From assembly GCA_016932315.1 (NCBI GenBank), contig JAFGDD010000004.1:35457-99456 (forward strand): a DNA stretch of 64,000 nt, given 5' to 3'. The DNA comes from Candidatus Woesearchaeota archaeon. GTDB taxonomy: Archaea > Nanobdellota > Nanobdellia > Woesearchaeales > SM23-78. Under the pieces are notes generated by a model. That model worked only from the letters and a program-made list of their open reading frames with translations. It did no database searches and was not told the origin of the DNA. Below, one piece after another: positions 33,942 through 54,562 of the stretch (its first letter is position 1; each line of letters starts with the position of its first letter). A program made the position numbers and the translations under genes.

Positions 33942-34047
33942 TCCCAATTCATTTCCTAATAAAAATATATTTTTAGTCAATGTTAAAGGCTTGTATTTAA
34001 AAAGTTTATTAAAGAAACAAAAATAACGTGTTTTTATTATTTTTTTA

Positions 34048-37640: not shown

Positions 37641-38138
37641 CTATTTTTTACAGATGTCAAGGGTGATTTCCATTTCGCCAGGATAAAGTGGCAGGAAAAC
37701 CCATCCTTGCTCCCTGTTTTTTATTTTAGAGGTGCAGTTCAAACTAATGAAAGTAAGGTTGGTTTTCTCAAGAGTGAGGTTGAAGCTTATACTCCAGTTA
37801 ATCAGGGTCTTGTCCAGTATCTTGATGAGGGTAAGATTAACCATTTGGCAGCTGGTGTATTCATTGCAAACATATGAGTGGTATGTTTTGGCGCAATCAG
37901 TTATGAGTTCTGACAAGGCAATGTTGTGGCATTCCTCGACGCTTGTTTTGGTCAGGCTTATCAGGAAGTTGGTTGCCATTTCCTTGTCAATGTAAATCTT
38001 CTGAATATTTTTGGCAGGGTTGCTAAGCTTGTACACCAGAAAAAAGAGCATTCCTGTAATTACTATTATTACAATAATAACCAGCCCTATAATTTCCATC
38101 TGGGCTTTTGAATTTTGATGCTGTATAATTTTGCTCAT
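37641..38138 (-). CDS. Type IV pilin-like protein (archaeal class III signal peptide)
   Basis: MSKIIQHQNSKA|QMEIIGLVIIVIIVITG has a charged n-region, [KR][AS]Q, then a hydrophobic helix, as in archaeal pilins with Q at +1. ORF track start is at 38177. Confidence 0.5.
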   Translation of the reverse strand: MSKIIQHQNSKAQMEIIGLVIIVIIVITGMLFFLVYKLSNPAKNIQKIYIDKEMATNFLISLTKTSVEECHNIALSELITDCAKTYHSYVCNEYTSCQMVNLTLIKILDKTLINWSISFNLTLEKTNLTFISLNCTSKIKNREQGWVFLPLYPGEMEITLDICKK

Positions 38139-38178
38139 AAATTCTTGCTCACATAATTCTCCCTGAGTCTCGCACAAC

Positions 38179-38712
38179 TTATTCGTATACTTGCAGTTCC
38201 ATAACTCCTAAGGCATATGCCTTGGTTAATGGATTGTAAAGGCTTACAGGCACGCGCACCATATCTGCAGTCTTGGTTTTGCCTGCGTTCTCCCATAAAA
38301 TCCAATAATCCGTGCCTAAAGTTCTTGAATCAGACGGGTAAATTTCTACTACACTTATCTTTGAGTTTCTTAGCAAGTCAAAATAATAGTTAAAGGAGTA
38401 AGAATTATCCTGTTTAGTCTGATTAATGAAGCTGCCAAGCACCATTAGCTTTGTAATGTCTAAACACATAAATTCTGAGGTTCCTATTTCTGAGCATTCG
38501 AGCTCTGGCCAGAAGCTAAGCCTGTGCGCAATTTCCACAACTCTTGCATTCCTAAGCTGCCTTTGCTTCTCCTTTATGCTTACCTCCTGGAATTTTGAAT
38601 AGAAGACAACACTGAGGACAATAATAATTATTATTATAAAAACTACAAATATCGTTTCAGTCATCTGAAGCTCTGCTTTCTTTGCAACTGTTGTTTTATT
38701 GTTTTTTCTCAT
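38179..38712 (-). CDS. Type IV pilin-like protein
   Basis: N-terminal VAKKAELQMTETIFVVFIIIIIIVLSV (charged, then long hydrophobic stretch). Stop abuts the next gene. Confidence 0.4.
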   Translation of the reverse strand: MRKNNKTTVAKKAELQMTETIFVVFIIIIIIVLSVVFYSKFQEVSIKEKQRQLRNARVVEIAHRLSFWPELECSEIGTSEFMCLDITKLMVLGSFINQTKQDNSYSFNYYFDLLRNSKISVVEIYPSDSRTLGTDYWILWENAGKTKTADMVRVPVSLYNPLTKAYALGVMELQVYE

Positions 38713-38784
38713 TTTCAGCTCATTAAAAAATTTATATACTTTTTTAATTCTTTAATCTTCTAATTCTTTAATCTTTTAATACTT

Positions 38785-39870
38785 TTAATATATTCTTGGG
38801 CAATTAGTTTTCTGTAACAAGTAATTGTTAAGAGTTCTCAAATCATTAACTGCCAAGAATAATGAATATATGTCGGGTAGCAGAGGTTCTTTTTTTCCAG
38901 AATATTCCTGAATATTTGCCAGGTAAAGGGCTGCGCTGTTCTCTGCCCCAATATAAGCATCTGAGCAGCTCTCAACTGTGTTTTCAGAGTAATAAATCAT
39001 TCTTTGCTGATAAAGCTGCGCTAGGAGTTCTAGGCGCAAAAGGCTTTTCTTAAAGTTGTGTTCATAAATGGTCTTGTCATGACTTATCACGCCGCCAAGT
39101 ATAGAATCCAAGCCTAAATACAGAGCTGCATCTGCGTTGTTGCCTACAAATCCTGCTTCAGGGGAGTAAGTAGAAAATATCATCTCGCCATAATCCAGCA
39201 ATACTCCTTGTGCTGGCTTTATGACGACTGCAAATAACCTTTTATCACCATTAACAAAATTTAGCTGACCGACTCCGAGAGGAGCATATTCATCATCAAA
39301 AATAAAAACTGTATGTTCATAATTATTATCTTCATAAACGGCAACTTCTGATGTGTCAATGAATTTCTTGGTTGCGTCCTCTGGCATGGCATCAAAAACA
39401 GCATTCAACAAAGGAGAATCTAATGAACCAACAAAAACATATTCTATATCTTTGTCAGTAATATAAACGAAAGGCATGATTTTGAAGGGGGCATTAAAGA
39501 TTCTGGTAAGAATAACCAGCTCGTCACTCTTAATCTCTGAAGGTGAAAAAATAACATTATAATCATACCGGCTTGACTTAAGAGCTCCTTCAACATAATA
39601 CTCTGACGTTACATCGGAGGTGAAGAATATTTTTTTGCCTGCTTTGTCAAAAAGAATGCTCCTTTGGGTGTTCTCTGAAGCAGAACTGATTTTTAGAAGG
39701 TTATCAAGCTCAAGCGTTGCTTCCTGCGCTGAGCTTTTATCAGCACTAGAGCTCTGGTTGGCTATCACGCTGAAGAAGAAACCTAAAAAGACTGCTCCTG
39801 CTATGAGCACAAATATCCAGTTGAACTGAAGAGTAAAACCCTTCCTATTAAAAAGCCTCTTTTTAAGCAT
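38785..39870 (-). CDS. Type IV pilin-like protein with bacterial-type G|FTLxQ motif
   Basis: MLKKRLFNRKG|FTLQFNWIFVLIAGAVFLGFFF resembles the prepilin G|FTLIE consensus, with Gln at +5. Confidence 0.45.
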   Translation of the reverse strand: MLKKRLFNRKGFTLQFNWIFVLIAGAVFLGFFFSVIANQSSSADKSSAQEATLELDNLLKISSASENTQRSILFDKAGKKIFFTSDVTSEYYVEGALKSSRYDYNVIFSPSEIKSDELVILTRIFNAPFKIMPFVYITDKDIEYVFVGSLDSPLLNAVFDAMPEDATKKFIDTSEVAVYEDNNYEHTVFIFDDEYAPLGVGQLNFVNGDKRLFAVVIKPAQGVLLDYGEMIFSTYSPEAGFVGNNADAALYLGLDSILGGVISHDKTIYEHNFKKSLLRLELLAQLYQQRMIYYSENTVESCSDAYIGAENSAALYLANIQEYSGKKEPLLPDIYSLFLAVNDLRTLNNYLLQKTNCPRIY

Positions 39871-39948
39871 TTCATCACCGCGTTCATCGCACTCCTCGCA
39901 CTTAGTGTGTGCCTTTGAAACTCTTTTTAACCTTTTTTTAACCTCTTT

Positions 39949-40464
39949 TTAATTCCAGCCAGATTCTATCTGAACTTTGCTGCCCAGCCCTGTGAAGACA
40001 AGCTTGAAGTTGCCATTTCTTGCTTTGAAGCATTCTAAATGCGAGGTTGTGGGAATGCTTATCTTTTGTGAAAATTTATTTACATTTTTCAATGGCTCTG
40101 TAAACTCTGCCTTGACAAAAATATTGGCTGTACATGCACTAAGATAGTTTCTAATTTCCACTTCAGCAGCAGGGAGACTGTCAATTGAAAACAATGAACT
40201 TTCTCTTGGGCAAAAATCAGAGTCTGCAAAACAAACCTCCTTAACATTGCAAGCCGCTTTAAGAGTTTCTTCGTGCACAGATCCTGCATCTGTGTATTCG
40301 TCAATAAAATTAAGGATAGAACGCTCAAAAACAATTCTTTGGTGTTCGCACTGCGCATTCATGATTGAGGATATGCCTTTGTAACCTACCACTATGAGCA
40401 CTCCAACAACCAGTAACACCATGATGTAAATGAAGACTTGGCTTATCTGAGCTCTTTTTTCCAT
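39949..40464 (-). CDS. Type IV pilin-like protein (class III signal peptide, Q at +1)
   Basis: MEKRA|QISQVFIYIMVLLVVGVLIVVG. Confidence 0.5.
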   Translation of the reverse strand: MEKRAQISQVFIYIMVLLVVGVLIVVGYKGISSIMNAQCEHQRIVFERSILNFIDEYTDAGSVHEETLKAACNVKEVCFADSDFCPRESSLFSIDSLPAAEVEIRNYLSACTANIFVKAEFTEPLKNVNKFSQKISIPTTSHLECFKARNGNFKLVFTGLGSKVQIESGWN

Positions 40465-40592
40465 AAAAAACCTCGCAGGAATTGTGATAATCGTTATAAG
40501 TTAGTATAAACATAATAAACATAATAAAATAGTATAAAATTATAATAAAATAAAGTATAATCATTAATGCTTCCTAATATGAGCGCATTATT

Positions 40593-42515
40593 TTATTTTT
40601 TTGAATCTTTTTTCTTCTTATATGAATCAGATAATGTCTTTAGCTTATCAAATGTGGCGCTCGAATCCTTTTTTGGCTGGCTAGCTTTCTCAGTTTTTTC
40701 TTCTTTTTGTTCCTTGGCCTGACCGGGCTTCTTGCCCAGCTCAGATAATGGTATGAAATCTTCTTCCTCCCCCTCTTTACCAACAGCCTTAGCTGCAATT
40801 GCAGCCCCAGCTCCTTTACTCTGCTCTGCAGGAATTCCTGACTTGACTTTTGTAGTATCAAATCCTTGCAGCAAAGCCTTTCTTTCTCCTTGTTTCTGGG
40901 CAATGGCAGGAGGTGTTAATCTTCTTGGCTGAATAAGCTGTTGTTGAGCTCTGGCTTGTGTAGGTCTCTGTACACCAGCACCTGCTGGCTGAGTTTTTTT
41001 CTGAGGCATTAATACCTTTCTGTAATAAACCAAGAACCCAGCACTGCCAAGCATTAAGAGTAATCCAATTATTAAAAGAATAATTTGTAATGTTCTGTTT
41101 TTTGAACCGCAGTCAGGAATCTCGCTTGTTGGATCGGTTTCTTCATAATACTCATCGAGATTAGTGCAGCCATCCTTGTCAGGGTTTTCATCAGCGTCAT
41201 CATTATCCTTGTCCAAACCATATTTGTCCTCCCACCAATCAGGCATGCCATCTCCGTCACTATCAAGTTCCTTGTCTACAACGCATATGCCTGCTTCGCA
41301 AATGCCTGAAGTGCAGTCATTGCCAGAAAGGCATTTTTGACCTGTTTCACATTTCTTGCTGCATCCTCCGCCACAGTCAATGTCAGTTTCGTCACCGTTT
41401 TGAAATTTGTCAGAACAACTAGCAACAGAACATTTTTTGGTTGTGGGATGACAGAAATTAGAAATACAATCATTGTCTCTGTTGCAACTCTTGTTTATAT
41501 CGCAGCCAGGGCAACTGGCGCCGCAATCCACATCACTCTCAAGACCATTCTGCAAGCCATCAGTGCAACTGGGGGCAGAGCATATTCCTGCTTTGCAATA
41601 GTATGATGCGCAGTCTTCATTAACAAAACACTTTTTGCCGTCAGCACAACCTAAACAACTGCCTCCGCAATCAACATCAGTTTCATCACCGTCTTTGATG
41701 CTGTCAAAACAGGAAGTATTAAAGCTTGAATTAGCGCCTACTATGCATGAGCTCGTGTCAAAGTGGCAATCAGCACTGCATTTCAAACTGCCTCCTATAA
41801 ATGCAGTGAAGCTTTTGCAGTCATTAATACTGCCCCAATCATTCTTGTCGCATAGTTCTGCATCATTCAACACATAATCACCACATTCTCCGCTCTCATT
41901 TACTGAGATGCAATTCCTAACGTTAAATGTGCAATTGCTGTTGCAGCTTAATGTGCCATTAATAAAAGCACCAATAGTCCTGCAACTTTGGCCATTAAGA
42001 TTGCTTGACTCGCATTCTTCTCCGGCGTCAATTCTCTTATTGCCACAACTCTCCAGCTTGCAATATGCGCTGCAGCCATCACCATCAATGTTGTTGCCAT
42101 CATCGCATTCTTCGCTTCGATTTACTTTCCTGTCACCACAACCAGCAGGATAGACTGGCTTGATTTCAAACATCTTAGAATCATTCCTTTTGTTACCGAC
42201 CCTGTCCTGAACCATGATGATGTAAGTATAAGTGCCTGCTGGCAAGGTGCTTCTGGTGGTAGTAACAAAAGTCTTGCCATTATTCAGAGTGTCGGTATCC
42301 AGACTAAAGCTCTGATTATTTGAATCTATTATTTTAGCACTCACCAAGCTTACAGACTCATTATAGGTGGCATTAATTCTCACACTCGTCGAATTAATGG
42401 TAATCCATTGCGAGCTGACTGCTTCAGCAGAAAAAAGGTTTATAAAAAAAAGAAAGCAAAAAAGCAACAATGACAATAGTATAACTCCTGAAAAAATACT
42501 TACTCCTTTACTCAT
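40593..42515 (-). CDS. Type I membrane surface protein with Myxococcus-type Cys-rich repeats, TSP3-like Ca-binding Asp repeats, a TM and a disordered cytoplasmic tail
   Basis: Sec signal (MSKGVSIFSGVILLSLLLFCFLFF...AEA). CGDRKVNRSEECDDGNNIDGDGCSAYCKLE matches the Myxo-disulfide repeat consensus. There are three copies of DGDETD(V/I)DCGG.C..C and a DSDGDGMPDWWED Asp-rich run. TM LQIILLIIGLLLMLGSAGFLVYY. The cytoplasmic tail of about 140 aa is K/Q/A/E-rich. Start taken at internal ATG 42515 (ORF track 42605). Confidence 0.6.
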   Translation of the reverse strand: MSKGVSIFSGVILLSLLLFCFLFFINLFSAEAVSSQWITINSTSVRINATYNESVSLVSAKIIDSNNQSFSLDTDTLNNGKTFVTTTRSTLPAGTYTYIIMVQDRVGNKRNDSKMFEIKPVYPAGCGDRKVNRSEECDDGNNIDGDGCSAYCKLESCGNKRIDAGEECESSNLNGQSCRTIGAFINGTLSCNSNCTFNVRNCISVNESGECGDYVLNDAELCDKNDWGSINDCKSFTAFIGGSLKCSADCHFDTSSCIVGANSSFNTSCFDSIKDGDETDVDCGGSCLGCADGKKCFVNEDCASYYCKAGICSAPSCTDGLQNGLESDVDCGASCPGCDINKSCNRDNDCISNFCHPTTKKCSVASCSDKFQNGDETDIDCGGGCSKKCETGQKCLSGNDCTSGICEAGICVVDKELDSDGDGMPDWWEDKYGLDKDNDDADENPDKDGCTNLDEYYEETDPTSEIPDCGSKNRTLQIILLIIGLLLMLGSAGFLVYYRKVLMPQKKTQPAGAGVQRPTQARAQQQLIQPRRLTPPAIAQKQGERKALLQGFDTTKVKSGIPAEQSKGAGAAIAAKAVGKEGEEEDFIPLSELGKKPGQAKEQKEEKTEKASQPKKDSSATFDKLKTLSDSYKKKKDSKK

Positions 42516-42683
42516 TCTAATAAGCCCAGCATGATTAAATTTAATATTATTAAATTTAATATTATTTTTTTTTATATTGCTAACCTTGTTGCTTTTCCCC
42601 TTCATAATATAAACCTCTTTTTTAATTCTGCTCTTAAAATTACCATCTCATCAATGTCAAGTTACATTAATTTTATGTGGTTG

Positions 42684-45600
42684 TTATCTGTTTGGCGCGA
42701 TAGTAATGATTGGCTCATCTGGTGGCTCAATATCATATAATATTCCTAGTAATGTGTTGCTGTAGGTGTTGCCTGCAAAGTCCTCTGCATAGAATAATAC
42801 ATCTGTAAAGTTGGTTCTGTTGCCAATATTAATACTAATTGCAAAGATGCCTGTATCGTTTGAGAAGCAGGGCTGCTTCTGACCTGTGAGTACACAATTA
42901 TTAATGCAACTGGCTTGGTTGTTTCTCGTGTTCTTAGCACAAACATATCTTGAGTCTGTTGAAGTAATGCCTTGCGCAGGAACAATCTGTAGATTAGTCG
43001 GGAAGTTTGAAGCATTAGACGGACTGGTCAGGTCAATGAATGGTTTTTCTGCATCCACTCTGATGGTAGTGTTCTTTACCTGCTCCAAGTTCTTTGCAGG
43101 GTCCTGGGAATAATAATAAATCTGATAACTCCCAGATACAGGCAGCTTCTTTGAGTATTCGCTGTTTCTTCCTAATTCATCAGGATAGCAATAATTGCTC
43201 GCACTGACTATGCAAAACGAGGTGTTAATAAGATTTGATGGATAATTATCAGTTGCAGTGTATTTAATATTAACAGTGGCTGGGTAAACTCCAAATCCTG
43301 AAGGAAGTATGGTTGTTGTTGGGCTGGAGAAGTCTGCCTCGCAGTAACGGTCTCCTATTGGGCAATCTCTTCCCGTATTGGTTATAAAGTTTATTGGATT
43401 ATTATCTGCATCTCTAAAGCAGTAAAGCCCTGTCCAATAGCATTTTCCTAGGCGCAATGAATCGCTGCTTGCAGGAGCGAGCTGATGAGTTCCGCCAACT
43501 CTTATAGTGTTATTATATGTCGCATCCACGTGCACTGGCTGTCCGCCTGTACAGTTCTGCTGAATAAGATAATCAAGGCAAGAGGCAGTGGATTGTTTTG
43601 AGCAGGATTGGGCGCTGATCAAAGAAGAAGTGCCCTGGTAATAACATGATCCAAATAATTTGCATACTTCTGGAGTGCAGCCAGGACTTAGCCAATTGTA
43701 TTGGCTAGAATCACAGAATTCACACTTATGCAATTGAGGATTAGTAGGTCTGCATAACCCCCCGAGGGCATGCTGATCTTCATTCAGCCACACCCATTCG
43801 CAAATCTTGTTCTTGGCGCAAGGGTCAGCAGGGTCAGTGCAAGCTGCTTCTGACTTATAATCATAACAACTGGCAATGTTAGCACAATAATCAAATGCAT
43901 TGAATAAGCTTAGAGTTCTGTCAATGTAACACCCTTCAATCAAGTCTCTTTCAGGGCGGCCATTTTCCTTGCAGAACTTGGTAACCCTATAACCGCCTTC
44001 TTCTACAGTAACATTAAGGTCCAGATGAGCAAACATACCAAACAAGCCATTGCAGCTATCGCAGATGCTTTGATTAACGCACTTAGTTTCACCATTATCA
44101 TTTGGTCCCATGCAGTGCTTGCCGCCAGGGGTGCAATCCTCTATTGTCTCAAGATTATTGTTGGCGCCACATTTTTTCCTGGCGTTATTCATGCAGAACT
44201 GCGGAGGATGAGATTCCATGCAATAATAATTTCCTGTGGAAGTGCATTTTATCTGGGAAGCTCCTACCTTGGAAGTGTCTGTTATGAAGTAAGCGTTCAG
44301 GTAGTAGCAGTACTCTGAGTTCTGGCTTAGAGGGCCGTCTGAATAAGTTGTAGTAAATTTAGGAATGCTTGCATCAATTGGATTGAATTGAGTGGGCGAA
44401 CTGCATGCAACAGTTGTATTTTTTTGGCAGCGAAATAATGAGTAACTTGATATACTTGGGGCACAAGCACTATGCGTACTCCAGGATAGATTTATTTTCT
44501 TTGATAGGGAGTCAAAATTTGAGGAAAGAACTGGCTTCATGGTTATGGCAGTACAATTTGCAGGCCCGCACATGCAATCCTCACATTCTACGCCATTAGG
44601 GCACATCATGCCTATTTCGCAGGCTTCTGTGGGTGCAAGAACAAGGTCTCCGCAGCCAGATATTCCTTTGCAATTGCAAGCCCCTATCTCACCAAGATTA
44701 GCGCAATCATTGGCAGAGCATAAGCTGAATTGTCCTGAACCAGCAAGAGTATCTTCGCACGTCTCATAAGGATAAGTAACTATTCCATCGCCACAAACAG
44801 GACTGTAAACATTGCAATCAGCATCATTGTCAGCAGTACAACCAAGCGGGCAAACACCATTTGGAGTTGATGAGCAAACACAATCAGAATCATAATTAAT
44901 GTCTTCTGGGTTTGAAGAGCAGGCAACAGGGCAGTCTGCATTGTTATCAATGCATATTATTGAACCACAGTCATCAGGGTCATCAGGTCCGCAATAGTTG
45001 CAATATTCAGCTTTATGTACCTCTACTGTAAGATCATAAAACTTCCATATTGAGTTAACGCAATAAGCATTTGCAGAGGCATTGCAGCTTTCATTTGTAC
45101 ATTGACAATTAAGCTGAATATTTATGTTGGATGCGTCTGACGCGAGGTTTGCAATGGTTATGTTAGATGGTGCGCATCCTGGCTTTGAAGCAGCCACGAT
45201 AACATTTGTTCCGCCATCTACATTGTTAAGAATGAAAGAGCCATCTATTTTTGAATAATTCGCCACCCCTTTTGCACTAACAAAAGCCCTGCTTATAGAA
45301 CTGCCTGATGTCGACTGAATACTTCCTGAAACTGAAAATCCTGCGCCTGAGCAACTGCATGGCGCACCAGGGGTAACTTGTGAAGGGAAAAAGGTGCTGG
45401 GGGGTTCACAAGAAATATTAATGCTTCCAACACTAGTACCTGCTGGTGGGCAACAACATCCTAGAGCACATTGGGAAACTTCAGTGGTACAAGATTTTTC
45501 ATCAAAATAAAGTACACTGCCGGTGTTACAATTGTCTTGAGATGCTACTGTTGAACACGACTTTGCTTGCAAATCAACGCAGCAACCAGTTGCCATGGCG

Positions 45601-45689
45601 AGGTCTGCAAATAAAAGACTGAAAATCATTCCTGACAGAAACAAAATGATAAATAATAATTTTTTTTCTTTGAGCATTATATTCACCAC
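42684..45689 (-). CDS. Giant secreted cysteine-rich surface protein (1001 aa)
   Basis: Sec signal. A carboxypeptidase-regulatory-like beta-sandwich segment (GSFILNNVDGGTNVIVAASKPG). Dense Cys spacing and many N-x-S/T sequons. No TM anchor. Confidence 0.55.
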   Translation of the reverse strand: MVNIMLKEKKLLFIILFLSGMIFSLLFADLAMATGCCVDLQAKSCSTVASQDNCNTGSVLYFDEKSCTTEVSQCALGCCCPPAGTSVGSINISCEPPSTFFPSQVTPGAPCSCSGAGFSVSGSIQSTSGSSISRAFVSAKGVANYSKIDGSFILNNVDGGTNVIVAASKPGCAPSNITIANLASDASNINIQLNCQCTNESCNASANAYCVNSIWKFYDLTVEVHKAEYCNYCGPDDPDDCGSIICIDNNADCPVACSSNPEDINYDSDCVCSSTPNGVCPLGCTADNDADCNVYSPVCGDGIVTYPYETCEDTLAGSGQFSLCSANDCANLGEIGACNCKGISGCGDLVLAPTEACEIGMMCPNGVECEDCMCGPANCTAITMKPVLSSNFDSLSKKINLSWSTHSACAPSISSYSLFRCQKNTTVACSSPTQFNPIDASIPKFTTTYSDGPLSQNSEYCYYLNAYFITDTSKVGASQIKCTSTGNYYCMESHPPQFCMNNARKKCGANNNLETIEDCTPGGKHCMGPNDNGETKCVNQSICDSCNGLFGMFAHLDLNVTVEEGGYRVTKFCKENGRPERDLIEGCYIDRTLSLFNAFDYCANIASCYDYKSEAACTDPADPCAKNKICEWVWLNEDQHALGGLCRPTNPQLHKCEFCDSSQYNWLSPGCTPEVCKLFGSCYYQGTSSLISAQSCSKQSTASCLDYLIQQNCTGGQPVHVDATYNNTIRVGGTHQLAPASSDSLRLGKCYWTGLYCFRDADNNPINFITNTGRDCPIGDRYCEADFSSPTTTILPSGFGVYPATVNIKYTATDNYPSNLINTSFCIVSASNYCYPDELGRNSEYSKKLPVSGSYQIYYYSQDPAKNLEQVKNTTIRVDAEKPFIDLTSPSNASNFPTNLQIVPAQGITSTDSRYVCAKNTRNNQASCINNCVLTGQKQPCFSNDTGIFAISINIGNRTNFTDVLFYAEDFAGNTYSNTLLGILYDIEPPDEPIITIAPNR

Positions 45690-45872
45690 CCTCTTTTCAT
45701 TTTGAAATCTTACTTAAAACTATATAAATGTTATTATTATGACACGATATTCCACTATTGACTTTTTTAACTTTTTTAACTCTTTATTCTTTTTAATTTG
45801 TTCTTTAATTTGCGTATATATCTATTTTATCTTAATTTATTTATTATCTTTTTCCTTTCATTTATTTTAAAT

Positions 45873-47900
45873 TTATTTTGTAATTATATATGCAGGTCGT
45901 GATACTTGACTTAATGAAGTATCATTATAACAGCTCTCGACAAAAGTATTGGTAACCGTGTCATTTTGTCTGACCCAAAAACAATCAGGCATTTTTCTTA
46001 TGCAAGTATTCTTGTCAGTAATGGAAAAGCAATCTCTGTGTGCTTGTGGGTCGCCAGAGTGCGTAATCGCATAAACACAACTCTGGCAGCTTCTTTTCTG
46101 TTCATTACCATTATCAGGATAGCAAGCCCAACCGACATAACTGTCAGGATCACAGAAACTACGGCATTGATTGGCTGCTGTCTTACACCAAGCACCTCTA
46201 CAGTCATGAGCAGGGTTCTCATTTGAACCTAATACTCCTGAAAAATCGCATTTAGAAATATCACAAGGATTATCATTGGCATCAGGTTTGCATTTGCCAT
46301 CGCCACATAAATTACATTGCTCTTTCTCTTTTGCATAATTGCAGCATGCTTCTAAGATGCATTCACCAATACAATTATCCTGGGGGGGATTATTTGTAGA
46401 AGAATCAGTTATGTTAATCCAGAACTGCTGATAATCAAATAGACCGTTATCGTCAAGAGCCAGTATGCCTACTGCATGAGTTCCTGAATCATATTGGTTG
46501 ATGGACGCCCAGAGTTCTGAGTAAGTCAAGCTGGCTTGTACTCGCATATCTGCTTCGCACCATCCTTGCCCTCCAGTAAGAATGGTAGTGCTAGAGCTTA
46601 TCTCTTCTGAAGGAATGATAAAAGTTCCCGAACCTTGGCATTCTGAACGACCAAAATTATAAGATAAAAAATAATAGGTGATTTTAGAGTCATCGGGGTC
46701 GTGAGCATTTAGTGGGATTTCTATTGTTTGAGTGTTTGCAACATCTATCTCCCTCCCTTCCATCCAATCCAGGGCTGGTCGCCTGTCTTTTATTGATATT
46801 CTAAACAACAAAGGCCTGCCATTAACAATTGATTTCCTATCGATTACTTCTAGAATATCATCATATTTGTAAGGCAAACTACAAGAGGTACACGGGTCTT
46901 TGACTCTTTTGACTTCTAACCCTGATTTCCAATATGGCGAACTTACAAATTCCTCTTCAATATCAAATTCTATATTTTTTGAATCCAAGGATAACAAATT
47001 ATAGATGAAGTTGTAAACCCTGCCAAGTCTAATGTTGGTTGTTGTCTGATAATCTGTTACCTTGGTTACTGGCTCCTTGTCAGGATAGGTTATCTTAATT
47101 GGATACTTTATGGCAAGCAGCATGTCTGAATCGTGTATGCTAAGTTCTGCTATTGGCGGCACCTCCGTGCTAAGCGTTGCTCCTGTTTTGTCTGAAAATT
47201 GAGTTAAGTCAACGCAAAGTGGGAGCTTCTTGATAATATAATCTTCTAGTTGCTTTTGTATTGTAAAGCCCACGTTTGCTCCTTTGGCAAATGGCTCGCA
47301 GCCAGAAGCTCTCATAGGGTGGCAGAGCTTGCTCATTACGTTTTCTCCGTAAAACCCATCATATGCAGCGTAGAATGAATTAAAGAGACAATTTTCATTA
47401 TAAATAACGTCAAGCTCAGAAAGAGAGGTGTTTGTGTAAGGATAATCTGGGCTTGCATAATTAATTTCAGAACAAAGGGCATTATCTTTTAATCCGTAAC
47501 TAACAAAATATGGTTTGGTAAGATGGGTGTAGTTAAGATAATCCGATCCAAGTGTTAAGTCCTTGAAAGGAATGTTTCCCCCTTCAAAATCATATATTGT
47601 GCCTCCATTGGCACTAATTTTTTCTAAGCCATCCATGGTTACTCTAAGAGCGCAATCAACAATATGGTTCTTTACTCTGCCTGTTTCGAGTTCGTTTAAT
47701 ATGTTCTGAGCAGTAACTGGCTTTGGCTTTATGCTTTGCCTCATCGCTAACATGATAATTACGAGTATTAATAGAACCAAACCTATTATGACGAAAAGCG
47801 TTATCTGGGATTTCTTTTGATGCTTTAGATAGTTCATCTTATAGCTAAGCTCATATGTATTGTATTTGACTAGTATGTGATTCGCACTAATCTTAGTCAT
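45873..47900 (-). CDS. Large surface protein (675 aa) with pilin-like N-terminus and C-terminal Cys-rich module shared with the 1530-aa protein
   Basis: N-terminal ...KHQKKS|QITLFVIIGLVLLILVIIM resembles the [KR][AS]Q class III signal of the adjacent pilins. The last 167 aa are a Cys-rich domain homologous to an internal segment of the 1530-aa protein. Confidence 0.55.
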   Translation of the reverse strand: MTKISANHILVKYNTYELSYKMNYLKHQKKSQITLFVIIGLVLLILVIIMLAMRQSIKPKPVTAQNILNELETGRVKNHIVDCALRVTMDGLEKISANGGTIYDFEGGNIPFKDLTLGSDYLNYTHLTKPYFVSYGLKDNALCSEINYASPDYPYTNTSLSELDVIYNENCLFNSFYAAYDGFYGENVMSKLCHPMRASGCEPFAKGANVGFTIQKQLEDYIIKKLPLCVDLTQFSDKTGATLSTEVPPIAELSIHDSDMLLAIKYPIKITYPDKEPVTKVTDYQTTTNIRLGRVYNFIYNLLSLDSKNIEFDIEEEFVSSPYWKSGLEVKRVKDPCTSCSLPYKYDDILEVIDRKSIVNGRPLLFRISIKDRRPALDWMEGREIDVANTQTIEIPLNAHDPDDSKITYYFLSYNFGRSECQGSGTFIIPSEEISSSTTILTGGQGWCEADMRVQASLTYSELWASINQYDSGTHAVGILALDDNGLFDYQQFWINITDSSTNNPPQDNCIGECILEACCNYAKEKEQCNLCGDGKCKPDANDNPCDISKCDFSGVLGSNENPAHDCRGAWCKTAANQCRSFCDPDSYVGWACYPDNGNEQKRSCQSCVYAITHSGDPQAHRDCFSITDKNTCIRKMPDCFWVRQNDTVTNTFVESCYNDTSLSQVSRPAYIITK

Positions 47901-47912
47901 ATCGTGTTCTTA

Positions 47913-48776
47913 TTATCTGAAGACAAGACATGCATAACTCACGCTGTTCGCGTAATCGTTAGTTAAGTCACCAGAGGTATAATACTGCTCCAAAGCAGCA
48001 TTTTTGAAGGTAATAGTTTTCAAAAGCAAAGTTATTGGAAGCTGACCACAAATGGTGGCTCCTGTTTTGTAAACATAATCAGCAAATTCATTTGCAGAGC
48101 CTTTTTTTATCAAATCAATGGCATCACTGTCTAGCTTGTAAATCCTCTGCTTGATATCAGTGGAAAAAGGCACGTAGCCATAATTCATGCCATAATGAGT
48201 GAAATCACTGCTCACAATAAAAGTAACCTTTCTTTTAAGCTCTGCAATCGCATCTTTTAAGTCAGATGCAACTTTGTCTAGGTCAATATCTTCGGAAACA
48301 AGAATGGGCAGAATCTTTATGTGGTCTGCTCTTTTTCCGAGTGAAAACTGAAGAAAAGGCAACTGAACCTCAATGCAATGCTCATTGGCGTGTAACTCAT
48401 CATTAATCTTTAAGCTGCCCTTTTTTGCCAAAAGCTTTGCCAACTCCTGGTCTACTCTGACAAAGCCAAAAGGAGTTTCAAAGGATTCTATTGCAATGCC
48501 AGAAGCACCTCCTCTGTGACTTGGGCCCAACATTATAAACACCTCTGGCAAAGGAGCCTCTGCTAATGCAGCAAACCCCCAGGCAGCAGCCATGCCGCTA
48601 TAAATATAACCTGCATGAGGGTTTATTATGGCTTTGATTGGCAGAGCATCTGGCTTGGTCTTGGTAACAGGCAAATCTCCTGGACCTCTAGAATCATTAA
48701 AGCAAGCCTCTATTTGCTTGGTTAAAGCATTAACTGTTTTAGGATAGAATGACCCTGCATATGCTGGCTTTCTCAT
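47913..48776 (-). CDS. Memo-family protein (MEMO1 / AmmeMemoRadiSam system protein B-like)
   Basis: MRKPAYAGSFYP, INPHAGYIYSG and the conserved His/Asp/Cys positions are typical of the Memo/extradiol-dioxygenase-like fold. Size is 287 aa. Confidence 0.8.
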   Translation of the reverse strand: MRKPAYAGSFYPKTVNALTKQIEACFNDSRGPGDLPVTKTKPDALPIKAIINPHAGYIYSGMAAAWGFAALAEAPLPEVFIMLGPSHRGGASGIAIESFETPFGFVRVDQELAKLLAKKGSLKINDELHANEHCIEVQLPFLQFSLGKRADHIKILPILVSEDIDLDKVASDLKDAIAELKRKVTFIVSSDFTHYGMNYGYVPFSTDIKQRIYKLDSDAIDLIKKGSANEFADYVYKTGATICGQLPITLLLKTITFKNAALEQYYTSGDLTNDYANSVSYACLVFR

Positions 48777-48913
48777 AACACCACCTTATTATCTTGTATT
48801 TTTTCATTTTAAATGTTAGGTTTTAAATATTAAAAAAATAAATGACATTTTAAAAAATTCAGGTATTTGCTTAGCTAATTAGCTAATAGTTTAATACAAC
48901 TTTTACTATTTTA

Positions 48914-51900
48914 CTATTCTTCTGGGTTTCTGAGAAGTGTTAGCGTATTCCAAGCGCCTGCTGGCGGATTCTTAAGTGAGACGCTAACAACATTGGCTTG
49001 TGATGATTCGCTAATGTTCAAAAAGCTCAGCTCAGAAACTGAAAATCCTGTGTAGTTGAAAGAGTAGAACCATGCTGGCTGGGCAGAAGCTTTGCAAGCA
49101 TTCTCTCCTACTCCAAATATCTTCTTGTTATTCAGATTGGTTGCATACAGCTTATTAAAGAGCTGAAGCCCCTCTAGATTGCTTTGAAGAGAAGCGGGTT
49201 TTGGGCAAAGCCAGCCCATCCAGCTCAGCCAAGAAGGCAAGCTAGAGCAAACACCATTCCATAATGAAGGAGTTAATTCATTAATTTTTTGATCACTAAA
49301 AACAATCATTTTTGATTTGCTGTCATAATAGAGCTTCAGATAAGCATTATCTACGCACAAAGTAAAGCCGGGCTCGTTCAAACATTCAGGCTTAAAGTTA
49401 AATTTAGCTCCAGGATATGATTGGAGGAAATTTTGCTCAACAGTTGTTATGAAATCAGTGTGATTAGTAGCATTGTAAAACTGCTGATTAATGGTTGTGC
49501 CTATTATTCTTTGACCATTGAGGTTTAAGACACAATAATTATTGGTTTTGCCGGCTGCAAAAGGCAAGTCAATCAGCACATCCTCCTTTGTTCCGCACGT
49601 TAAAGTGAATTTGTCTGTGTTTTTTGTCAGAGAAACGAGTTCCATTGCCAAAAGCTTAGTTCTGCTCGTCCAATTTCCGCTCTGGCAAAGACTGTCTTTA
49701 ATGTATTGGGTGTTATTGATGCATTGCGGGTTGCCATCGACGTTGCCGTTATCAGCGGGATTGCCTGCGATATTATACAAGCATTGCGTGGCATTGGAAC
49801 AGAAGCCAGCATAACAGCCATTAGGCGTCTTCTGACCAGCACCCATTATATTAACCCACATTCCTTGCAAACACTTATAGATTGCGGTCTCATTAACCTT
49901 ATACTGAGCATTATAGGCTAATTGCTCAGCAATACAAGCACCGATCCCGCCGCCAGCAGTCGGATCCCAGCACTGATTAGGCAAGCAACAACTAGCATTT
50001 CTCAAGTTATTATTGCTGGTTACATTCTTGAAATAATCCATCAAAGGCTTCGGGACCTCTGATTTGTGGGATAAGTTCTCATAAGTTTGAGTCCAAGCGC
50101 CACTAACATAAGAGCAATAATAATCCCCCCTAGGGGTGTTTAATATAGTGCAATAATCAGAACGCTCAATCAAAGCTCCTTTTGCAGTTAAACCTCTGCC
50201 TGTTCCGGGGTCTGGCCAATCAGTAACAGCCTTTAGGCATTGCCTGCTCAGACGCTGGCTATAATCGCAGAAATCATTGGCGTGAGTGATAGGAGAGACG
50301 CATTGCCTGCACTCGCTAGGCCTATCTTTATCAGCCTTATAACAGGTAACTCCTACGTATTGGTCTTCTTTACAAACATCGCTACAGAATTCCCTTGCTG
50401 CAGCGCACCATGCATTTTCACAATCCTTATAAGGATTAGCATCGGACGACAATGGCAAGAAGAAATTGCATTTTGAAGCGTCACAACCAGGATTGTCTGG
50501 TTCACAATTATTAATGCATTGAGGCTGGCAACCCCACTTATCTGGTTCACAAGCATAGCTAGAGCAAGCCTCAATAATGCATTCCTTCACACAATTGCTC
50601 ATCTCAGTAGGACCAACAATAGGCTCGTCACGAGGATCTTCCTCGAATGCTGCTCCAGTTATCTCAATTAAGTTATTATTAATATATTCGGGTAATGATG
50701 AGGATTGAGATGAAGAAAAAGTAACAGGATCTAAACCGCAACCATAGAACTTGCCGTTCTGAACATAAACTTCATTATAAGTATAGGCTGTGCCACTGCT
50801 TCCTTTGTAGAGCAAGAAGTTATTGTTAGGCTGGAACTGACCCTTAAAACAGGCACCTGATGTGCTGCCATAATCATTATATGACTCATTACCCCAAGGT
50901 GTAAAATCCTCTTTTTCAGAGCAGCAATAAGTTCCAGTGGCCTTTAAACCGGCTTTGGTACAAGCATTCTGCAAAGTAGGGCCGTCAAGATTAGAACTAA
51001 AAGTCCCATCATCCAAACAATAAAGAGTTTTATTATTCATTACAATATACTGGCCGGGATTAAGTGTTTTAGTCACACTAGAATCCCTGCTTCCAGGAAT
51101 ATCGGTGCATCCCTTAATTCCACAGCAAATGGCAATCTTGGCTCGCGAGGAGTCTAATCCTGGTTTTTTTGTTTGGCTGTAATCAGTATAACATATATAA
51201 TTATGATCACTAACATTGCCCATGATTGAACCATTAGCAATCACGTAGTCTAAAGCGTATAACCCTGCTTGCCAACCATCGTCCTGCTGACCTGGTACGC
51301 AAAGCTGGGCATGAGTTAATCCATCCATCGCGCCATATACATAAATGCCATGAGCATTAGGTGAAGGAGAAATGAGTTTTTTGCCAGGGCAAGGGATAAG
51401 AGCGTCATTCACCACGCTCACATCACGCCCACTTTTGTACTCCTCCCATTCCAGAATTGGCGCCGGGCAAAAAGCACTCGAATCTGTTCCTTTTGTAAAT
51501 TCCATGTTCTTAAAAGACAAGCCTCTGGCTCCTGTACTTATGAGACTTGCAAAACCAAAAGGACTATCGCCAGTACAAACAAGATAACCGCCAAGAGAAG
51601 CAGTATTGAAACGATTACTATCAGTAGTAGCGTGCAAACCACAACCAGGCTCTAAAGCCGCACCCACAACAGAGCCATGAACTCTCACAGAAGCGCCCTG
51701 ATAATAACCAGCAGGGCAAGAGTACTGCCAGCTGCCTGTTGACTTCCAAGTAGTGCTGCCCTCCGAAGCACCACCATAAGCAAGTACTTTTGTAAGAATC
51801 TCAGGATTCCTGTTAGGATCAACTTCAAATAATTTTAAACATCCATCAGTGTCATAATCAACAATGTGGGTAATGTAGTCATCATACTTGTCCTCATCAA

Positions 51901-53506
51901 TGCACTTAACAAATTCGCCGCCCATATTAACTATTGGGAAAGAGTTAAAGCAGCCTGCAGTTTTGAAAACCTCGCCTGATTTAGTCTCATCAGAAGCCAA
52001 GTGCCAGCTTGTTCCATCACAAATCTTAGTGGTATCACAAACAGCTTTGCCATCAGAACGGCATTTATTATTGCCGCAACAACCAACCCCTTCTGTAAAG
52101 GTTCCTCCTGCAGCAGCGCAGGCAATAGGGTTAGTGTCAACAGCATCATAAGAGAAAGCAGGAGTATAACCAGCAGCCTCAATATTGGCCTTGCAACCAG
52201 TAGCAGGATCACAAGTTACATCATAAGGCTGATAATAAGGATTAGTGTTAGAATGCAAGTCCCTATAAGCTTTTGCAGAATCAGCAGCGCCATCATTATT
52301 AATCCCAACACAAACCTTATTCACGCAAAAAGGAGTGTCTGCCTTACAGAATCCTCCTTCTGTTCCAGTAAAGTACTTGTGAGTGCCACCATCAGTAAAT
52401 CCACAGCCACCGCAATTAAAAGGGTCAATGGTCTTATCAACACAAGTATTTCCAAAGGTTACCGTCCCCACGCCCTCAATGGCAACCGCAGAAGTGGTTG
52501 AAACTGTGACTTCTTGATTAGGCAATACATAAGGATAAACAGAGCCATCAGGCATTAAAGGAACAGGGCACCAAGCACAATTGGAAGCAGCTCCTTCTAT
52601 AGTGCAAAGTTCAGGAGTATCACGCAAATTACAAGGAGGCGAGCAAGTATCTGTGTAATTTACACAAAGAGTCACGCCTTTGAAACCATTAATTCCGTCT
52701 TTCAATATTATTGATGAGCTACCAGTATCATAAGTAAATGTTTGTTTAACAAAGCCATCAGGACACTTTAAATCACACATAGGGATGAGTCCCACGAAAG
52801 GGCATGTATCCGATAATAAAGTTACATTATTCACACCTTTATTTCCTGTTTTCGTGCTGCAAAAACGATAACAAATATTGGAATAGCCTATTGATCCTTC
52901 CTCATCCCAACCTGAAACGCCAGAAGGATTACAAGAAGGAGCGTTACAGGTGCCTCCATTAGGATACGGGTTCCAAGTTAATTTTAGGTCCTTCATTTCG
53001 TTCTGATAACCCTTCTTATAACAAATTCGCCATTGATTAACATCATCTGAACTTCCCGCGTCTATCCACCCCTCAGGACAAGAAGTTGTAAACATATGAA
53101 TATCATTAATACAACCAAAAGAAGATGCTGGCGGGGTTTCTGAAGATGGGCAACAGGCATTACAATCTCCATCTGCGACACTAGAGCAAGCTTTTTCTGT
53201 GAATGTTTCGTCTGATTTAGTACAACAAACCATATCTATATTACATACAGGATTACAATTACCCCCTGGATTCCATCCATTTTTAACATCGCAAGCAATT
53301 TGGCATTGTGCTTGCTCATCAGAATAGTAATCACAACACTTTGCACAATCGCCGGAATTATCCAAACAACCGCCACAAACAAAGGAGTTTGTTCCAGAAC
53401 ACGTTCCTAACACTAAATCAATAGATGTTAATAGCAATGCTGATGCAAAAACAAAAAAAAGTAAAGAAAAAAATTTCTTGTTACTATTGAAAATCATGAA
53501 CTCCAC
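48914..53506 (-). CDS. Giant secreted cysteine-rich surface protein (1530 aa)
   Basis: Sec signal (FFSLLFFVFASALLLTSIDLVLG). Well over 100 Cys in irregular spacing and numerous glycosylation sequons. Carries an internal module of about 125 aa homologous to the C-terminus of the 675-aa protein. No TM anchor. Confidence 0.55.
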   Translation of the reverse strand: MEFMIFNSNKKFFSLLFFVFASALLLTSIDLVLGTCSGTNSFVCGGCLDNSGDCAKCCDYYSDEQAQCQIACDVKNGWNPGGNCNPVCNIDMVCCTKSDETFTEKACSSVADGDCNACCPSSETPPASSFGCINDIHMFTTSCPEGWIDAGSSDDVNQWRICYKKGYQNEMKDLKLTWNPYPNGGTCNAPSCNPSGVSGWDEEGSIGYSNICYRFCSTKTGNKGVNNVTLLSDTCPFVGLIPMCDLKCPDGFVKQTFTYDTGSSSIILKDGINGFKGVTLCVNYTDTCSPPCNLRDTPELCTIEGAASNCAWCPVPLMPDGSVYPYVLPNQEVTVSTTSAVAIEGVGTVTFGNTCVDKTIDPFNCGGCGFTDGGTHKYFTGTEGGFCKADTPFCVNKVCVGINNDGAADSAKAYRDLHSNTNPYYQPYDVTCDPATGCKANIEAAGYTPAFSYDAVDTNPIACAAAGGTFTEGVGCCGNNKCRSDGKAVCDTTKICDGTSWHLASDETKSGEVFKTAGCFNSFPIVNMGGEFVKCIDEDKYDDYITHIVDYDTDGCLKLFEVDPNRNPEILTKVLAYGGASEGSTTWKSTGSWQYSCPAGYYQGASVRVHGSVVGAALEPGCGLHATTDSNRFNTASLGGYLVCTGDSPFGFASLISTGARGLSFKNMEFTKGTDSSAFCPAPILEWEEYKSGRDVSVVNDALIPCPGKKLISPSPNAHGIYVYGAMDGLTHAQLCVPGQQDDGWQAGLYALDYVIANGSIMGNVSDHNYICYTDYSQTKKPGLDSSRAKIAICCGIKGCTDIPGSRDSSVTKTLNPGQYIVMNNKTLYCLDDGTFSSNLDGPTLQNACTKAGLKATGTYCCSEKEDFTPWGNESYNDYGSTSGACFKGQFQPNNNFLLYKGSSGTAYTYNEVYVQNGKFYGCGLDPVTFSSSQSSSLPEYINNNLIEITGAAFEEDPRDEPIVGPTEMSNCVKECIIEACSSYACEPDKWGCQPQCINNCEPDNPGCDASKCNFFLPLSSDANPYKDCENAWCAAAREFCSDVCKEDQYVGVTCYKADKDRPSECRQCVSPITHANDFCDYSQRLSRQCLKAVTDWPDPGTGRGLTAKGALIERSDYCTILNTPRGDYYCSYVSGAWTQTYENLSHKSEVPKPLMDYFKNVTSNNNLRNASCCLPNQCWDPTAGGGIGACIAEQLAYNAQYKVNETAIYKCLQGMWVNIMGAGQKTPNGCYAGFCSNATQCLYNIAGNPADNGNVDGNPQCINNTQYIKDSLCQSGNWTSRTKLLAMELVSLTKNTDKFTLTCGTKEDVLIDLPFAAGKTNNYCVLNLNGQRIIGTTINQQFYNATNHTDFITTVEQNFLQSYPGAKFNFKPECLNEPGFTLCVDNAYLKLYYDSKSKMIVFSDQKINELTPSLWNGVCSSLPSWLSWMGWLCPKPASLQSNLEGLQLFNKLYATNLNNKKIFGVGENACKASAQPAWFYSFNYTGFSVSELSFLNISESSQANVVSVSLKNPPAGAWNTLTLLRNPEE

Positions 53507-53589: not shown

Positions 53590-54420
53590 TTATTTAATCA
53601 ATAGATATTTCTTCATTTCATCCTGAATTTCTTCCTCTGAGAATGCTATCAGGGGCATTAATATGAACATATTAATAGGGTGTTGCTTTATGTTGGTGAG
53701 TGTGTCTGAGGTAATGATTGCTTTGCAGTCAAGTTTCTTTGCTATTTCGTCTATTTCAGGAATTTTTTTTATTTTATGAAGAATTAATTTATAAGGGCAA
53801 AATTCTTGTAATAAGGAATAATTTGTGTCTGAAGAAGCCACTAATTCAACTGCGCATCCTCTCCTCATAATCAGGAGCGCTGCTAGGATTGACTTCTCAT
53901 CAGAAACTAACGCTAACACCTTGCCTTCAACGCCCGCGGGCAATCCTCCAAAGCAATTAATGGTTTTTGTGAATAAGAATGCTTCATCATCAATTATTTC
54001 AACACATATATCAAGATCTGGCTTTTCCAAGTCCACTTTCCAGCCTTTCTTCTGCACTATAAATGCTCCTATTTGCTTGTTAAGCTCCAAGGAGGAAGAG
54101 AAGCGTTCTTTGGTTAGTCTTCTGGCACTTATCTTGAAACTGGTGGTTTTCTCGTGGTTTTCAGCTTGTTTTAAGGCTTCTGAACAAATTGCTTTAATCT
54201 CAGCGCTGGTTTTGGTGCAGGGGCTGTAGGAAACATTTCCAAAAACTCTGCGAAAATCAAGCTCATGCTCTGCTTCAACTAATAATCTGCCTGGAAGCTG
54301 TTTTATTCTTGGCTTGAAAGCTGAAAGCTGGCTTCGGATGTTAGTCATGAGCCTTTTCTCAAACTCTGACCTATTCTTGCCTTTCAGTGCAATTTCTGCG
54401 TATCGCACAAGGTAAATCAT
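53590..54420 (-). CDS. ThiI-like THUMP-domain protein with degenerate PP-loop
   Basis: The N-terminus (YLVRYAEIALKGKNRSEFEKRL) matches the ThiI ferredoxin-like/THUMP region. Where ThiI has SGGIDS, this protein has LALVSDEKS. The protein is about 110 aa shorter than ThiI. Confidence 0.5.
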   Translation of the reverse strand: MIYLVRYAEIALKGKNRSEFEKRLMTNIRSQLSAFKPRIKQLPGRLLVEAEHELDFRRVFGNVSYSPCTKTSAEIKAICSEALKQAENHEKTTSFKISARRLTKERFSSSLELNKQIGAFIVQKKGWKVDLEKPDLDICVEIIDDEAFLFTKTINCFGGLPAGVEGKVLALVSDEKSILAALLIMRRGCAVELVASSDTNYSLLQEFCPYKLILHKIKKIPEIDEIAKKLDCKAIITSDTLTNIKQHPINMFILMPLIAFSEEEIQDEMKKYLLIK

Positions 54421-54510: not shown

Positions 54511-54562
54511 CCGTTATAACGTGTTATAACGCATTATAACGCCCGTTATAACGTGTTATAAT
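54511..54562. repeat. Tandem array (5 copies, 10/10/12/10-bp phasing) of the palindromic octamer GTTATAAC
   Basis: GTTATAAC at 54513, 54523 and 54545. One-mismatch copies ATTATAAC at 54533 and GTTATAAT at 54555. Lies about 90-140 bp upstream of the ThiI-like start and 14 bp past the stop of the wHTH regulator gene. Confidence 0.8.

Follow-up and report, generated by a model that had tools for sequence, protein, structure and literature searches.

Described filament loci and the gene block

General descriptions exist (PMC4858521; bioRxiv 10.64898/2026.04.22.720090) of archaeal type IV filament loci in which several minor pilins accompany a large Cys-containing protein anchored at its C-terminus and a large secreted 'adhesin or minor pilin', and DPANN genomes are said, also in general terms, to hold divergent pilin islands (PMC6393860). 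Here we analyzed a block of nine genes at positions 37641-53506, on the minus strand, in a 64,000-nucleotide stretch (hereafter the window) of contig JAFGDD010000004.1 from a Candidatus Woesearchaeota archaeon, and we assign a probability of about 0.6 to the reading that this gene island supplies this DPANN archaeon with minor pilins and adhesins of a type IV pilus-like filament (TFF). The preliminary description of the block, made from the sequence alone, had not recognized it as a described system, which was too strong a statement in view of the loci just cited. No paper on these particular families or on their arrangement came up in our literature search, and the block is most likely a widespread, unannotated version of a known machinery type rather than a wholly new system.

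Woesearchaeota and the related Nanoarchaeia are abundant, uncultured and thought to live attached to other cells. To our knowledge, minor-pilin priming and tip complexes are so far understood in bacteria only, and we know of no proteins assigned to the pili-like appendages of ultrasmall cells. Such appendages have been imaged between these cells and their hosts (PMC7906910). Five of the block genes, which form a core conserved in distant lineages, are concrete candidates for an attachment apparatus as well as new protein families to annotate, and they may offer an archaeal case of the complexes by which minor pilins prime or tip a filament; their relevance to DPANN biology comes from the naming of such concrete candidates for a host-contact apparatus. 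The nine block genes, numbered from low to high coordinate, are as follows (a vertical bar marks the putative cleavage site).

g1, 37641..38177, minus strand: pilin-like protein, SKA|QMEIIGLVII; the probable start is the ATG at 38138 (MSKII...), giving 165 amino acids (aa)
g2, 38179..38712, minus strand: pilin-like protein of 177 aa, KKA|ELQMTETIF
g3, 38785..39870, minus strand: pilin-like protein of 361 aa, RKG|FTLQFNWIFVLIAG
g4, 39949..40464, minus strand: pilin-like protein of 171 aa, MEKRA|QISQVFIY
g5, 40593..42605, minus strand: type-I membrane protein of 670 aa with a signal peptide, an Ig-like domain and Cys-rich repeats
g6, 42684..45689, minus strand: secreted giant of 1001 aa with a Sec-type signal, 80 Cys (8.0%) and 18 N-glycosylation sequons
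g7, 45873..47900, minus strand: protein of 675 aa with a KKS|QITLFVIIG head and a Cys-rich C-terminal module
Memo, 47913..48776, minus strand: homologue of the Memo family / AmmeMemoRadiSam protein B (PF01875, E = 4e-62; TIGR04336, 221 bits)
g9, 48914..53506, minus strand: secreted giant of 1530 aa with a Sec-type signal, 102 Cys (6.7%) and 17 N-glycosylation sequons

With the 'system 1' (Epd-type) pili of Methanococcus maripaludis and relatives the block shares a Q at position +1 after a K/R-G/A site (bioRxiv 10.64898/2026.04.22.720090; PMC3875500), the presence of several minor pilins together with adhesin-like proteins, and the placement of some pilin genes away from the machinery loci. One ATPase with two platform genes is the system 1 architecture, seen in methanogens and DPANN (bioRxiv 10.64898/2026.04.22.720090), and the same set occurs in a machinery locus of a metagenome-assembled genome (MAG) that is named like the MAG of one full-block locus, L008. 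Unlike Epd-type pili, however, the block shares no sequence family with them, as Class_IIIsignal/DUF361 and all other pilin models miss it; its quartet g4-g3-g2-g1 always lies >10 kb from machinery and is coupled to giant Cys-rich proteins, and no dedicated peptidase was seen in the window. A comparable inventory is found in type IV pilus loci of Thermoproteales, clades 4D/4E/4G (Makarova et al. 2016, PMC4858521), where small minor pilins stand with a large protein that has conserved cysteines and is anchored by a C-terminal transmembrane (TM) segment, and with a large signal-peptide-bearing 'adhesin or minor pilin'. Those loci differ in carrying ATPase and platform genes and in their arCOG membership, whereas the block has a far higher Cys content (6-8%) and a DPANN host lineage.

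The bacterial sets GspH-I-J-K, PilI-J-K and FimU-PilVWX with PilY1/PilC resemble the quartet in that three to four co-encoded minor pilins are kept as a set, that one member is much larger (here g3, with 361 aa and an extra helical domain) and that genes for large non-pilin adhesins adjoin; the filament priming or tip role proposed for such sets (PMC13533445) might by analogy apply to the quartet. This likeness is organizational only, since no sequence or fold relationship was detectable, including to the GspI/J/K (T2SSI/J/K) families. The quartet also differs in having no conserved E5 and an archaeal host without an outer membrane, with weak evidence for C-terminal docking of the giants.

Gene integrity and family searches

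The region is flanked by MCM, TBP and PolD genes, which identifies the window as archaeal, and the exact window proteins g7 and g3 are the NCBI entries JW756_01480 and JW756_01460, respectively (Candidatus Woesearchaeota archaeon, 290.5-kb contig). Nine successive minus-strand open reading frames (ORFs) lie between 37641 and 53506, in agreement with the preliminary description; every one of them was uninterrupted, with intergenic gaps of 1, 72, 78, 128, 78, 183, 12 and 137 bp in the order g1 to g9. A reading of the ORFs as decayed pseudogenes was rejected, because all of them are intact and orthologues of the same length occur in many relatives. By hydropathy, g1-g4, g6, g7 and g9 each have one N-terminal hydrophobic segment and g5 has a further TM segment, so that the proposed export of all nine products stands for eight of them; Memo, without signal peptide or TM segment, is cytoplasmic.

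True start codons are probably internal for several ORFs (M22 for g7), and other gene callers begin g6 four codons and g9 three codons downstream of the ORF start. TATA-like boxes lie in AT-rich spacers upstream of g9, Memo, g6, g5, g4 and g2, and with such promoter-like boxes inside the block a single operon can therefore not be taken as established. Scans for tRNA genes, Rfam families and tandem repeats gave nothing relevant within the block. When compared with Pfam and NCBIfam, the nine proteins matched only Memo, the Myxococcus repeat and, below threshold, Ig and CarboxypepD_reg models, with zero pilin models, and PDB sequence and profile searches with g3, g7, g6 and g9 as queries gave no matches.

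Conservation of the pilin-type N-termini

Class III-like N-termini were found in g1 (NSKA|QMEIIG), g4 (KRA|QISQVF), g3 (RKG|FTLQFNW) and g7 (KKS|QITLFVIIG), with leaders that, using corrected starts, comprise 5-13 residues ending in K/R-A/G/S and are followed by about 20 hydrophobic residues. At +1 the window proteins have Q in g1, g4 and g7, E in g2 and F in g3. A FlaFind-type core, defined as [KR][GA][ALIFQMVED][ILMVTAS], is fitted by g1 (KAQM), g2 (KAEL), g3 (KGFT) and g4 (RAQI), while the core of g7, KSQI, has S at -1 and the consensus of its orthologues is KAQI. Class III-type heads had been ascribed to all four small proteins, three of them with Q at +1, and the motif is indeed present in g1-g4, with the correction that g2 carries E and not Q. 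The KKA|ELQM sequence of g2 is a feature of the window genome, Q being found at +1 in 8/9 copies; processing of g2 could therefore suffer here if the peptidase requires Q at that position.

The site itself was well kept among orthologues, reading [KR]A|Q in 8/9 g1 and 9/9 g4, [KR][AS]|Q in 8/9 g2 and [KR][GA]|F in 51/79 g3 sequences. For g7 the pattern [KR][ASG]|Q was present in 46/58 sequences, and most of the g7 exceptions are truncated gene calls. Moreover, the most conserved 15-aa window of the protein is the one covering the cleavage motif and the start of the helix in g1 (0.67 against a mean of 0.34), g3 (0.81 against 0.31) and g4 (0.51 against 0.31); the N-terminal window is tied for the top rank in g2 and is second in g7. 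A conserved N-terminal stretch is typical of pilin alpha1-N helices, and plain membrane anchors rarely conserve sequence. Profile comparison using hhalign linked the families to each other and to short pilins solely via this N-terminal segment, and such a link through the N-terminus alone is usual among pilins. Because motif and helix recur in tens of orthologues, the description of g1-g4 and of the 675-aa g7 as pilin-like was upheld.

A FlaFind-style scan of all window ORFs found class III-like N-termini in the block and, beyond it, in TM1 of an ABC-2 permease and in one unrelated ORF. In the structural model of g3 (predicted local distance difference test, pLDDT, 91.6), an N-terminal helix of 56 residues leads into a beta domain, and a helical bundle lies at the C-terminus; structural comparison gave no match to pilins.

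A five-gene core in distant lineages

For comparison across lineages we fetched 104 loci of relatives, about 1.1 Mb in total (referred to by numbers such as L008). A word-indexed search gave 75 matches for the g3 family, down to 23% identity, and an exhaustive hidden Markov model (HMM) search gave 2161 representatives after clustering at 50%, 1114 of them at E <= 1e-30; its members are all about 325-385 aa long, with no Pfam model for any of them. Of 80 g3 loci obtained by a metagenome scan, we used as a distant set 20 non-redundant loci of at least 8 kb in which g3 is 25-28% identical to that of the window. In these, g4 lies directly upstream of g3 in 17/20, g2 follows g3 in 17/20 and g1 follows g2 in 15/20. 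A protein of at least 500 aa is encoded on the same strand directly upstream of g4 in 15/17 cases, and 14/15 of these contain 26-242 Cys. The g5-like proteins, 501-3133 aa long in the distant loci and with up to 317 Cys in one g5 relative, have a single C-terminal TM segment and a tail of 120-220 aa in 16/20.

One or two short pilins of 85-139 aa, with the N-terminal pattern K[GA]|QG[LI]S[LI]N.III, come directly after g1 in 11 distant loci, and runs of 8-12 more class III-like ORFs lie downstream in eight. Genes like g9 and g7 are retained in several distant loci, and g6-like giants in others. The conserved core is thus a g5-like giant with g4, g3, g2 and g1, set in pilin islands, and not the nine-gene block. 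As this core is kept at 25-28% identity amid entirely different flanks, the view that its genes are merely collinear is largely refuted for the core.

Collinearity among close relatives

In 13 close loci the common order is MCM-TBP-wHTH-ThiI-g9-Memo-g7-g6-g5-g4-g3-g2-g1-(YjbQ)-ABC ATPase-ABC-2 permease, where wHTH denotes a winged helix-turn-helix gene and ABC an ATP-binding cassette transporter. Conservation of the neighbourhood extends to distant lineages for the five-gene core, and the full order of nine genes is found in close relatives only. Across these loci, identity to the window is 76-93% for MCM and 88-99% for TBP, and since such housekeeping flanks are equally collinear, synteny of the nine genes is by itself weak evidence that they work together. 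The block proteins have diverged faster than the flanking ones, with median identities of 41-54% versus 82% for MCM, 95% for TBP and 69% for the ABC ATPase, and g5 varies in length between 560 and 2280 aa within the close clade.

At L004, about 6.5 kb is inserted between Memo and g7 (3383-9937), encoding a toxin-antitoxin-like nucleotidyltransferase/DUF8150 pair, a 444-aa protein and an extra Cys-rich giant of 1033 aa (82 Cys, with MopE and CarboxypepD_reg matches); the block therefore accepts new giant genes. The locus also occurs in MAGs titled 'Euryarchaeota archaeon SM23-78', 'Methanobacteriota archaeon' and 'uncultured Methanosarcinales archaeon' (L008, L012, L013, L014). The MCM proteins of L012-L014 are 79-83% identical to that of the window; the taxonomic labels of the MAGs look wrong or outdated.

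Pilin-headed g7 and the large Cys-rich proteins

As first described, g7 joins a pilin-type head to a large Cys-rich C-terminal domain. Its model (pLDDT 87.8) contains a novel alpha/beta domain at about residues 64-340 and an Ig/cadherin-like domain at about 380-500, and 20/30 of its Cys residues fall within residues 500-675. Residues 459-617 of g7 align with residues 909-1078 of g9 at 35% identity (E = 3e-24), which bears out the claim that the two proteins on either side of Memo share a homologous module. Fusion of a pilin-type head to a giant was also seen with g4, whose type of head (KKRG|QLEGEFF) is joined to Cys-rich giants of 1138-1241 aa at two loci.

g4-head giants, L020 3502-7227 and L021 3396-6812, minus strand: 69-104 Cys, MopE-like matches

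These giants adjoin a small 'Heavy_Cys_CGP' protein, and g3-g2-g1 lie on the opposite strand. In grafting a pilin N-terminus onto adhesive modules, g7 and the g4-head giants are similar to the modular pilins PilB and PilC of Streptococcus sanguinis (PMC8179133), from which they differ by using Ig/cadherin-like and novel Cys-rich domains rather than vWA or lectin domains, and by the Pro-rich break behind the g7 head. We regard g7 as a candidate modular pilin or adhesin.

The receptor-like topology reported for g5 was supported: the protein has an N-terminal signal, a single TM segment (503-529) and, on the cytoplasmic side, a tail of about 140 aa rich in K and E, and its residues 156-185 match the Myxococcus Cys-rich repeat TIGR02232 with 40.6 bits versus a cut-off of 20.8. 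It also contains three CGGxC modules, an Asp-rich TSP3-like motif and 43 Cys; its score against Pfam DUF4215, 23.7 bits, is under the cut-off of 27. For the giants g6 and g9, the absence of an anchor and the presence of sequons agreed with what had been stated, anchors being excluded because the sole hydrophobic segment is N-terminal, while the 'hundreds' of Cys residues came down to 80 and 102. The length of g6 is steady (968-1007 aa in 12 relatives), with CarboxypepD_reg and Ig-like matches that are both sub-threshold. Orthologues of g9 range from 663 to 1905 aa, the C-terminal ~400 aa being the best-conserved part, and the gene is missing from L007. No Pfam, NCBIfam or PDB match was obtained for g9, and neither g6 nor g9 has detectable relatives of known function. 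Conserved C-terminal motifs were seen in g9 (...W.xLtLLRNpE) and g7 (PAYII).

Genes for filament assembly

A Pfam scan of 47 window ORFs (nearly all those of at least 120 aa outside the block) found no pilus ATPase, platform or Peptidase_A24 domain. As tblastn queries against the window and the fetched loci we also used one T2SSE and two T2SSF proteins of DPANN origin from L018, the locus of a distant relative of the g7 head. Matches were limited to L018 itself, and thus ATPase and platform genes are absent from the 10 kb around each locus that carries the block. Both statements of the preliminary description on this point, that the block contains no assembly machinery and that the machinery would be encoded elsewhere, agree with these results, as machinery is absent near block loci and was found on a separate contig of a MAG that shares its name with that of L008.

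Across Woesearchaeota and Nanoarchaeota this ATPase family shows 65-70% conservation, and a protein search gave >7900 matches. One match, AYK26_00120, is attributed to 'Euryarchaeota archaeon SM23-78', the MAG name on L008. Contigs of other assemblies with the exact AYK26_00120 ATPase encode a 484-aa TPR-like protein, the T2SSE, two T2SSF proteins and three pilins of 153-158 aa, two of which read KRG|QAALEFLTTYGWAF and one RKA|QAAFEYLTTYGWAV, with a Q at +1 and the same type of site as in the block proteins. In addition, a distant protein with a g7-type head (P0050) is encoded 1.4 kb from a T2SSE/T2SSF locus. Both links to machinery, through SM23-78 and through P0050, are supportive. A radical-SAM gene (L102 1-1070) lies about 9 kb upstream of an SM23-78-type T2SSE/T2SSF/pilin locus, probably by coincidence; it is of note in view of the AmmeMemoRadiSam family to which Memo belongs.

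Proposed mechanism and alternative explanations

If the block is a minor-pilin and adhesin island, its products would undergo signal cleavage and incorporation into a filament, with a location at the tip and a function in adhesion. A class III signal peptidase would cleave the minor pilins g4, g3, g2 and g1 after the G/A/S behind K/R, leaving an N-terminal Q or F, and the quartet might act as a complex that primes the filament or sits at its tip, as proposed for minor-pilin sets of bacteria. A modular pilin g7 would present Ig/cadherin-like and disulfide-rich modules on a pilin-type head. Polymerization would depend on the ATPase and split platform encoded elsewhere in the genome, and the short major pilins are, in this lineage, likewise presumed to be encoded elsewhere. 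The Cys-rich proteins could be fast-evolving, disulfide-stabilized and glycosylated adhesins or envelope partners that set the specificity of the filament or contact site, g5 being membrane-anchored with a cytoplasmic tail and g6 and g9 being secreted. Memo, the ABC-2 transporter and a DsbA-like protein would be lineage-specific neighbours. In a bolder version, which we put forward tentatively and consider somewhat doubtful, g4-g3-g2-g1 would be the first recognizable archaeal pilus tip or initiation complex, of an origin independent of GspHIJK/PilIJK, which across thousands of DPANN lineages presents the giant, rapidly diversifying and disulfide-rich adhesins g5, g6, g7 and g9 that choose the host cell of the episymbiont; if true, a major uncultured group of archaea would recognize its hosts by this organelle.

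Several observations weigh against a filament. The window holds neither a prepilin peptidase, ATPase or platform gene nor a major pilin, and tblastn with the T2SSE and T2SSF queries placed such genes neither in the window nor in the fetched loci other than L018. The connection to machinery depends on a single binned MAG, and a MAG bin does not prove that the genes belong to the same genome. A Pro-rich linker at residues 58-63 breaks the N-terminal helix of g7, which fits a plain membrane anchor as well. Finally, the C-termini of g6, g7 and g9 are at the 66th-94th conservation percentile and no outliers, and without exceptional conservation there a docking of the PilY1 type, by a C-terminal strand, lacks support.

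In an alternative explanation the N-termini are uncleaved signal anchors, and the proteins would make up a complex of the envelope or contact site (S-layer-like or a cell-wall scaffold) that is anchored in the membrane and independent of pilus machinery, with g5 as a type-I anchor and g6 and g9 as disulfide-rich wall proteins. Such a complex would need no ATPase or platform gene within the ~1.1 Mb of loci besides L018, it would fit the interrupted helix of g7 and the lack of a structural match to pilins, and the C-terminal TM segment and tail of g5 resemble S-layer-like proteins in type IV pilus loci (PMC4858521). We nevertheless find it unlikely, because the K/R-small-Q motif and helix are the most conserved segment, a rare property for plain anchors, because the quartet adjoins canonical short pilins in distant lineages, and because sites of identical type occur in pilins beside a type IV pilus ATPase in the MAG that shares the name of a block holder.

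DPANN archaea rely on hosts for building blocks, and this dependence would suit a filament of type IV that works as a short pseudopilus, similar to a type II secretion system (T2SS) or to Com, for secretion or for uptake of DNA or nutrients from the host, in place of an adhesive pilus. Four minor pilins with one larger member mirror the GspH-K and ComGD-GG sets (PMC8727766; PMC13533445), but the block proteins show no homology with pilins of the Gsp or Com type, the linked proteins are adhesin-like (Ig/cadherin-like, Cys-rich repeat and TSP3-like domains) and no genes for DNA binding or translocation are found nearby, which makes this function quite improbable. Least probable of all, to the point that we give it very little weight, is that the block consists of unrelated surface genes whose modular appearance is a collinearity artefact of close relatives, including a bindosome-like role for the ABC transporter. 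Collinearity of both the MCM-TBP-wHTH-ThiI and the ABC/DsbA/hydrogenase flanks in the close clade, linkage of Memo and ABC genes in that clade only and the several promoter-like AT-rich spacers inside the block would all agree with it; the persistence of the core at 25-28% identity with entirely different flanks does not, and the transporter is of the ABC-2 exporter type without a substrate-binding protein, unlike the Sulfolobus bindosome. Accordingly, a bindosome-like tie to the ABC transporter was rejected, the transporter being of exporter type and confined to the close clade; no substrate-binding-protein domain was found in any block protein using Pfam and NCBIfam.

Memo and neighbouring genes

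The assignment of the embedded enzyme to the Memo family was correct (PF01875, TIGR04336). Among the window ORFs scanned against Pfam, no AMMECR1 or radical-SAM partner gene was found, so the protein is a Memo homologue but the three-gene AmmeMemoRadiSam system is not present here. Memo had been viewed as an embedded component of the surface system; this was abandoned, since Memo is not in the conserved core and distant lineages have g9-like and g7-like genes without Memo between them (they adjoin in L053, L071 and L072). A functional part for Memo in the system was rejected likewise on the grounds that it is cytoplasmic, confined to the close clade and without its partner genes.

On the g1 side, the block is followed by three further genes.

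ABC ATPase, 36072-37070, minus strand: clade-specific neighbour
ABC-2 permease, 34048-36075, minus strand: TM1 and TM2 separated by an extracellular loop of about 310 aa that is coiled-coil and rich in sequons
DsbA-like protein, 32112-34088, minus strand: 658 aa, membrane-anchored (TM 96-128), with two DsbA/GILT thioredoxin-fold domains

Adjacent members of this trio overlap, by 4 nt in one case and by 41 nt between the permease and the DsbA-like gene. The permease has a K/E-rich C-terminal tail and a YhgE/Pip-like topology. In the DsbA-like protein the active-site position reads CPYG, with no CxxC; it is plausible that this extracytoplasmic thioredoxin-fold protein is a helper for oxidative folding of the Cys-rich proteins. 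Memo and these ABC/DsbA neighbours occurred in at most 7 of the 29 metagenomic loci, each of them from a close relative. The genes of a sulfhydrogenase-like NiFe hydrogenase (27384-31763, minus strand; large, small, FAD/NAD and 4Fe-4S subunits plus a small HycI-like protein) are collinear with the ABC/DsbA genes in close relatives.

On the other side of the block, about 4.8 tandem copies of the palindromic CGTTATAACG are found at 54512-54561, in the spacer between the winged-helix gene (54576-55256, minus strand) and the ThiI/THUMP gene (53590-54420, minus strand), and form a candidate operator array. Farther away, on the plus strand at 6389-14442, a cluster encoding a BatA/VWA/DUF7406-7408 protein (621 aa), a VWA protein (812 aa), a coiled-coil protein, DUF7502, a MoxR-type AAA_3 ATPase and DUF58 matches the 'arCOG01314-type predicted secretion or membrane-remodelling complex' (Makarova et al. 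2015, PMC5898192).

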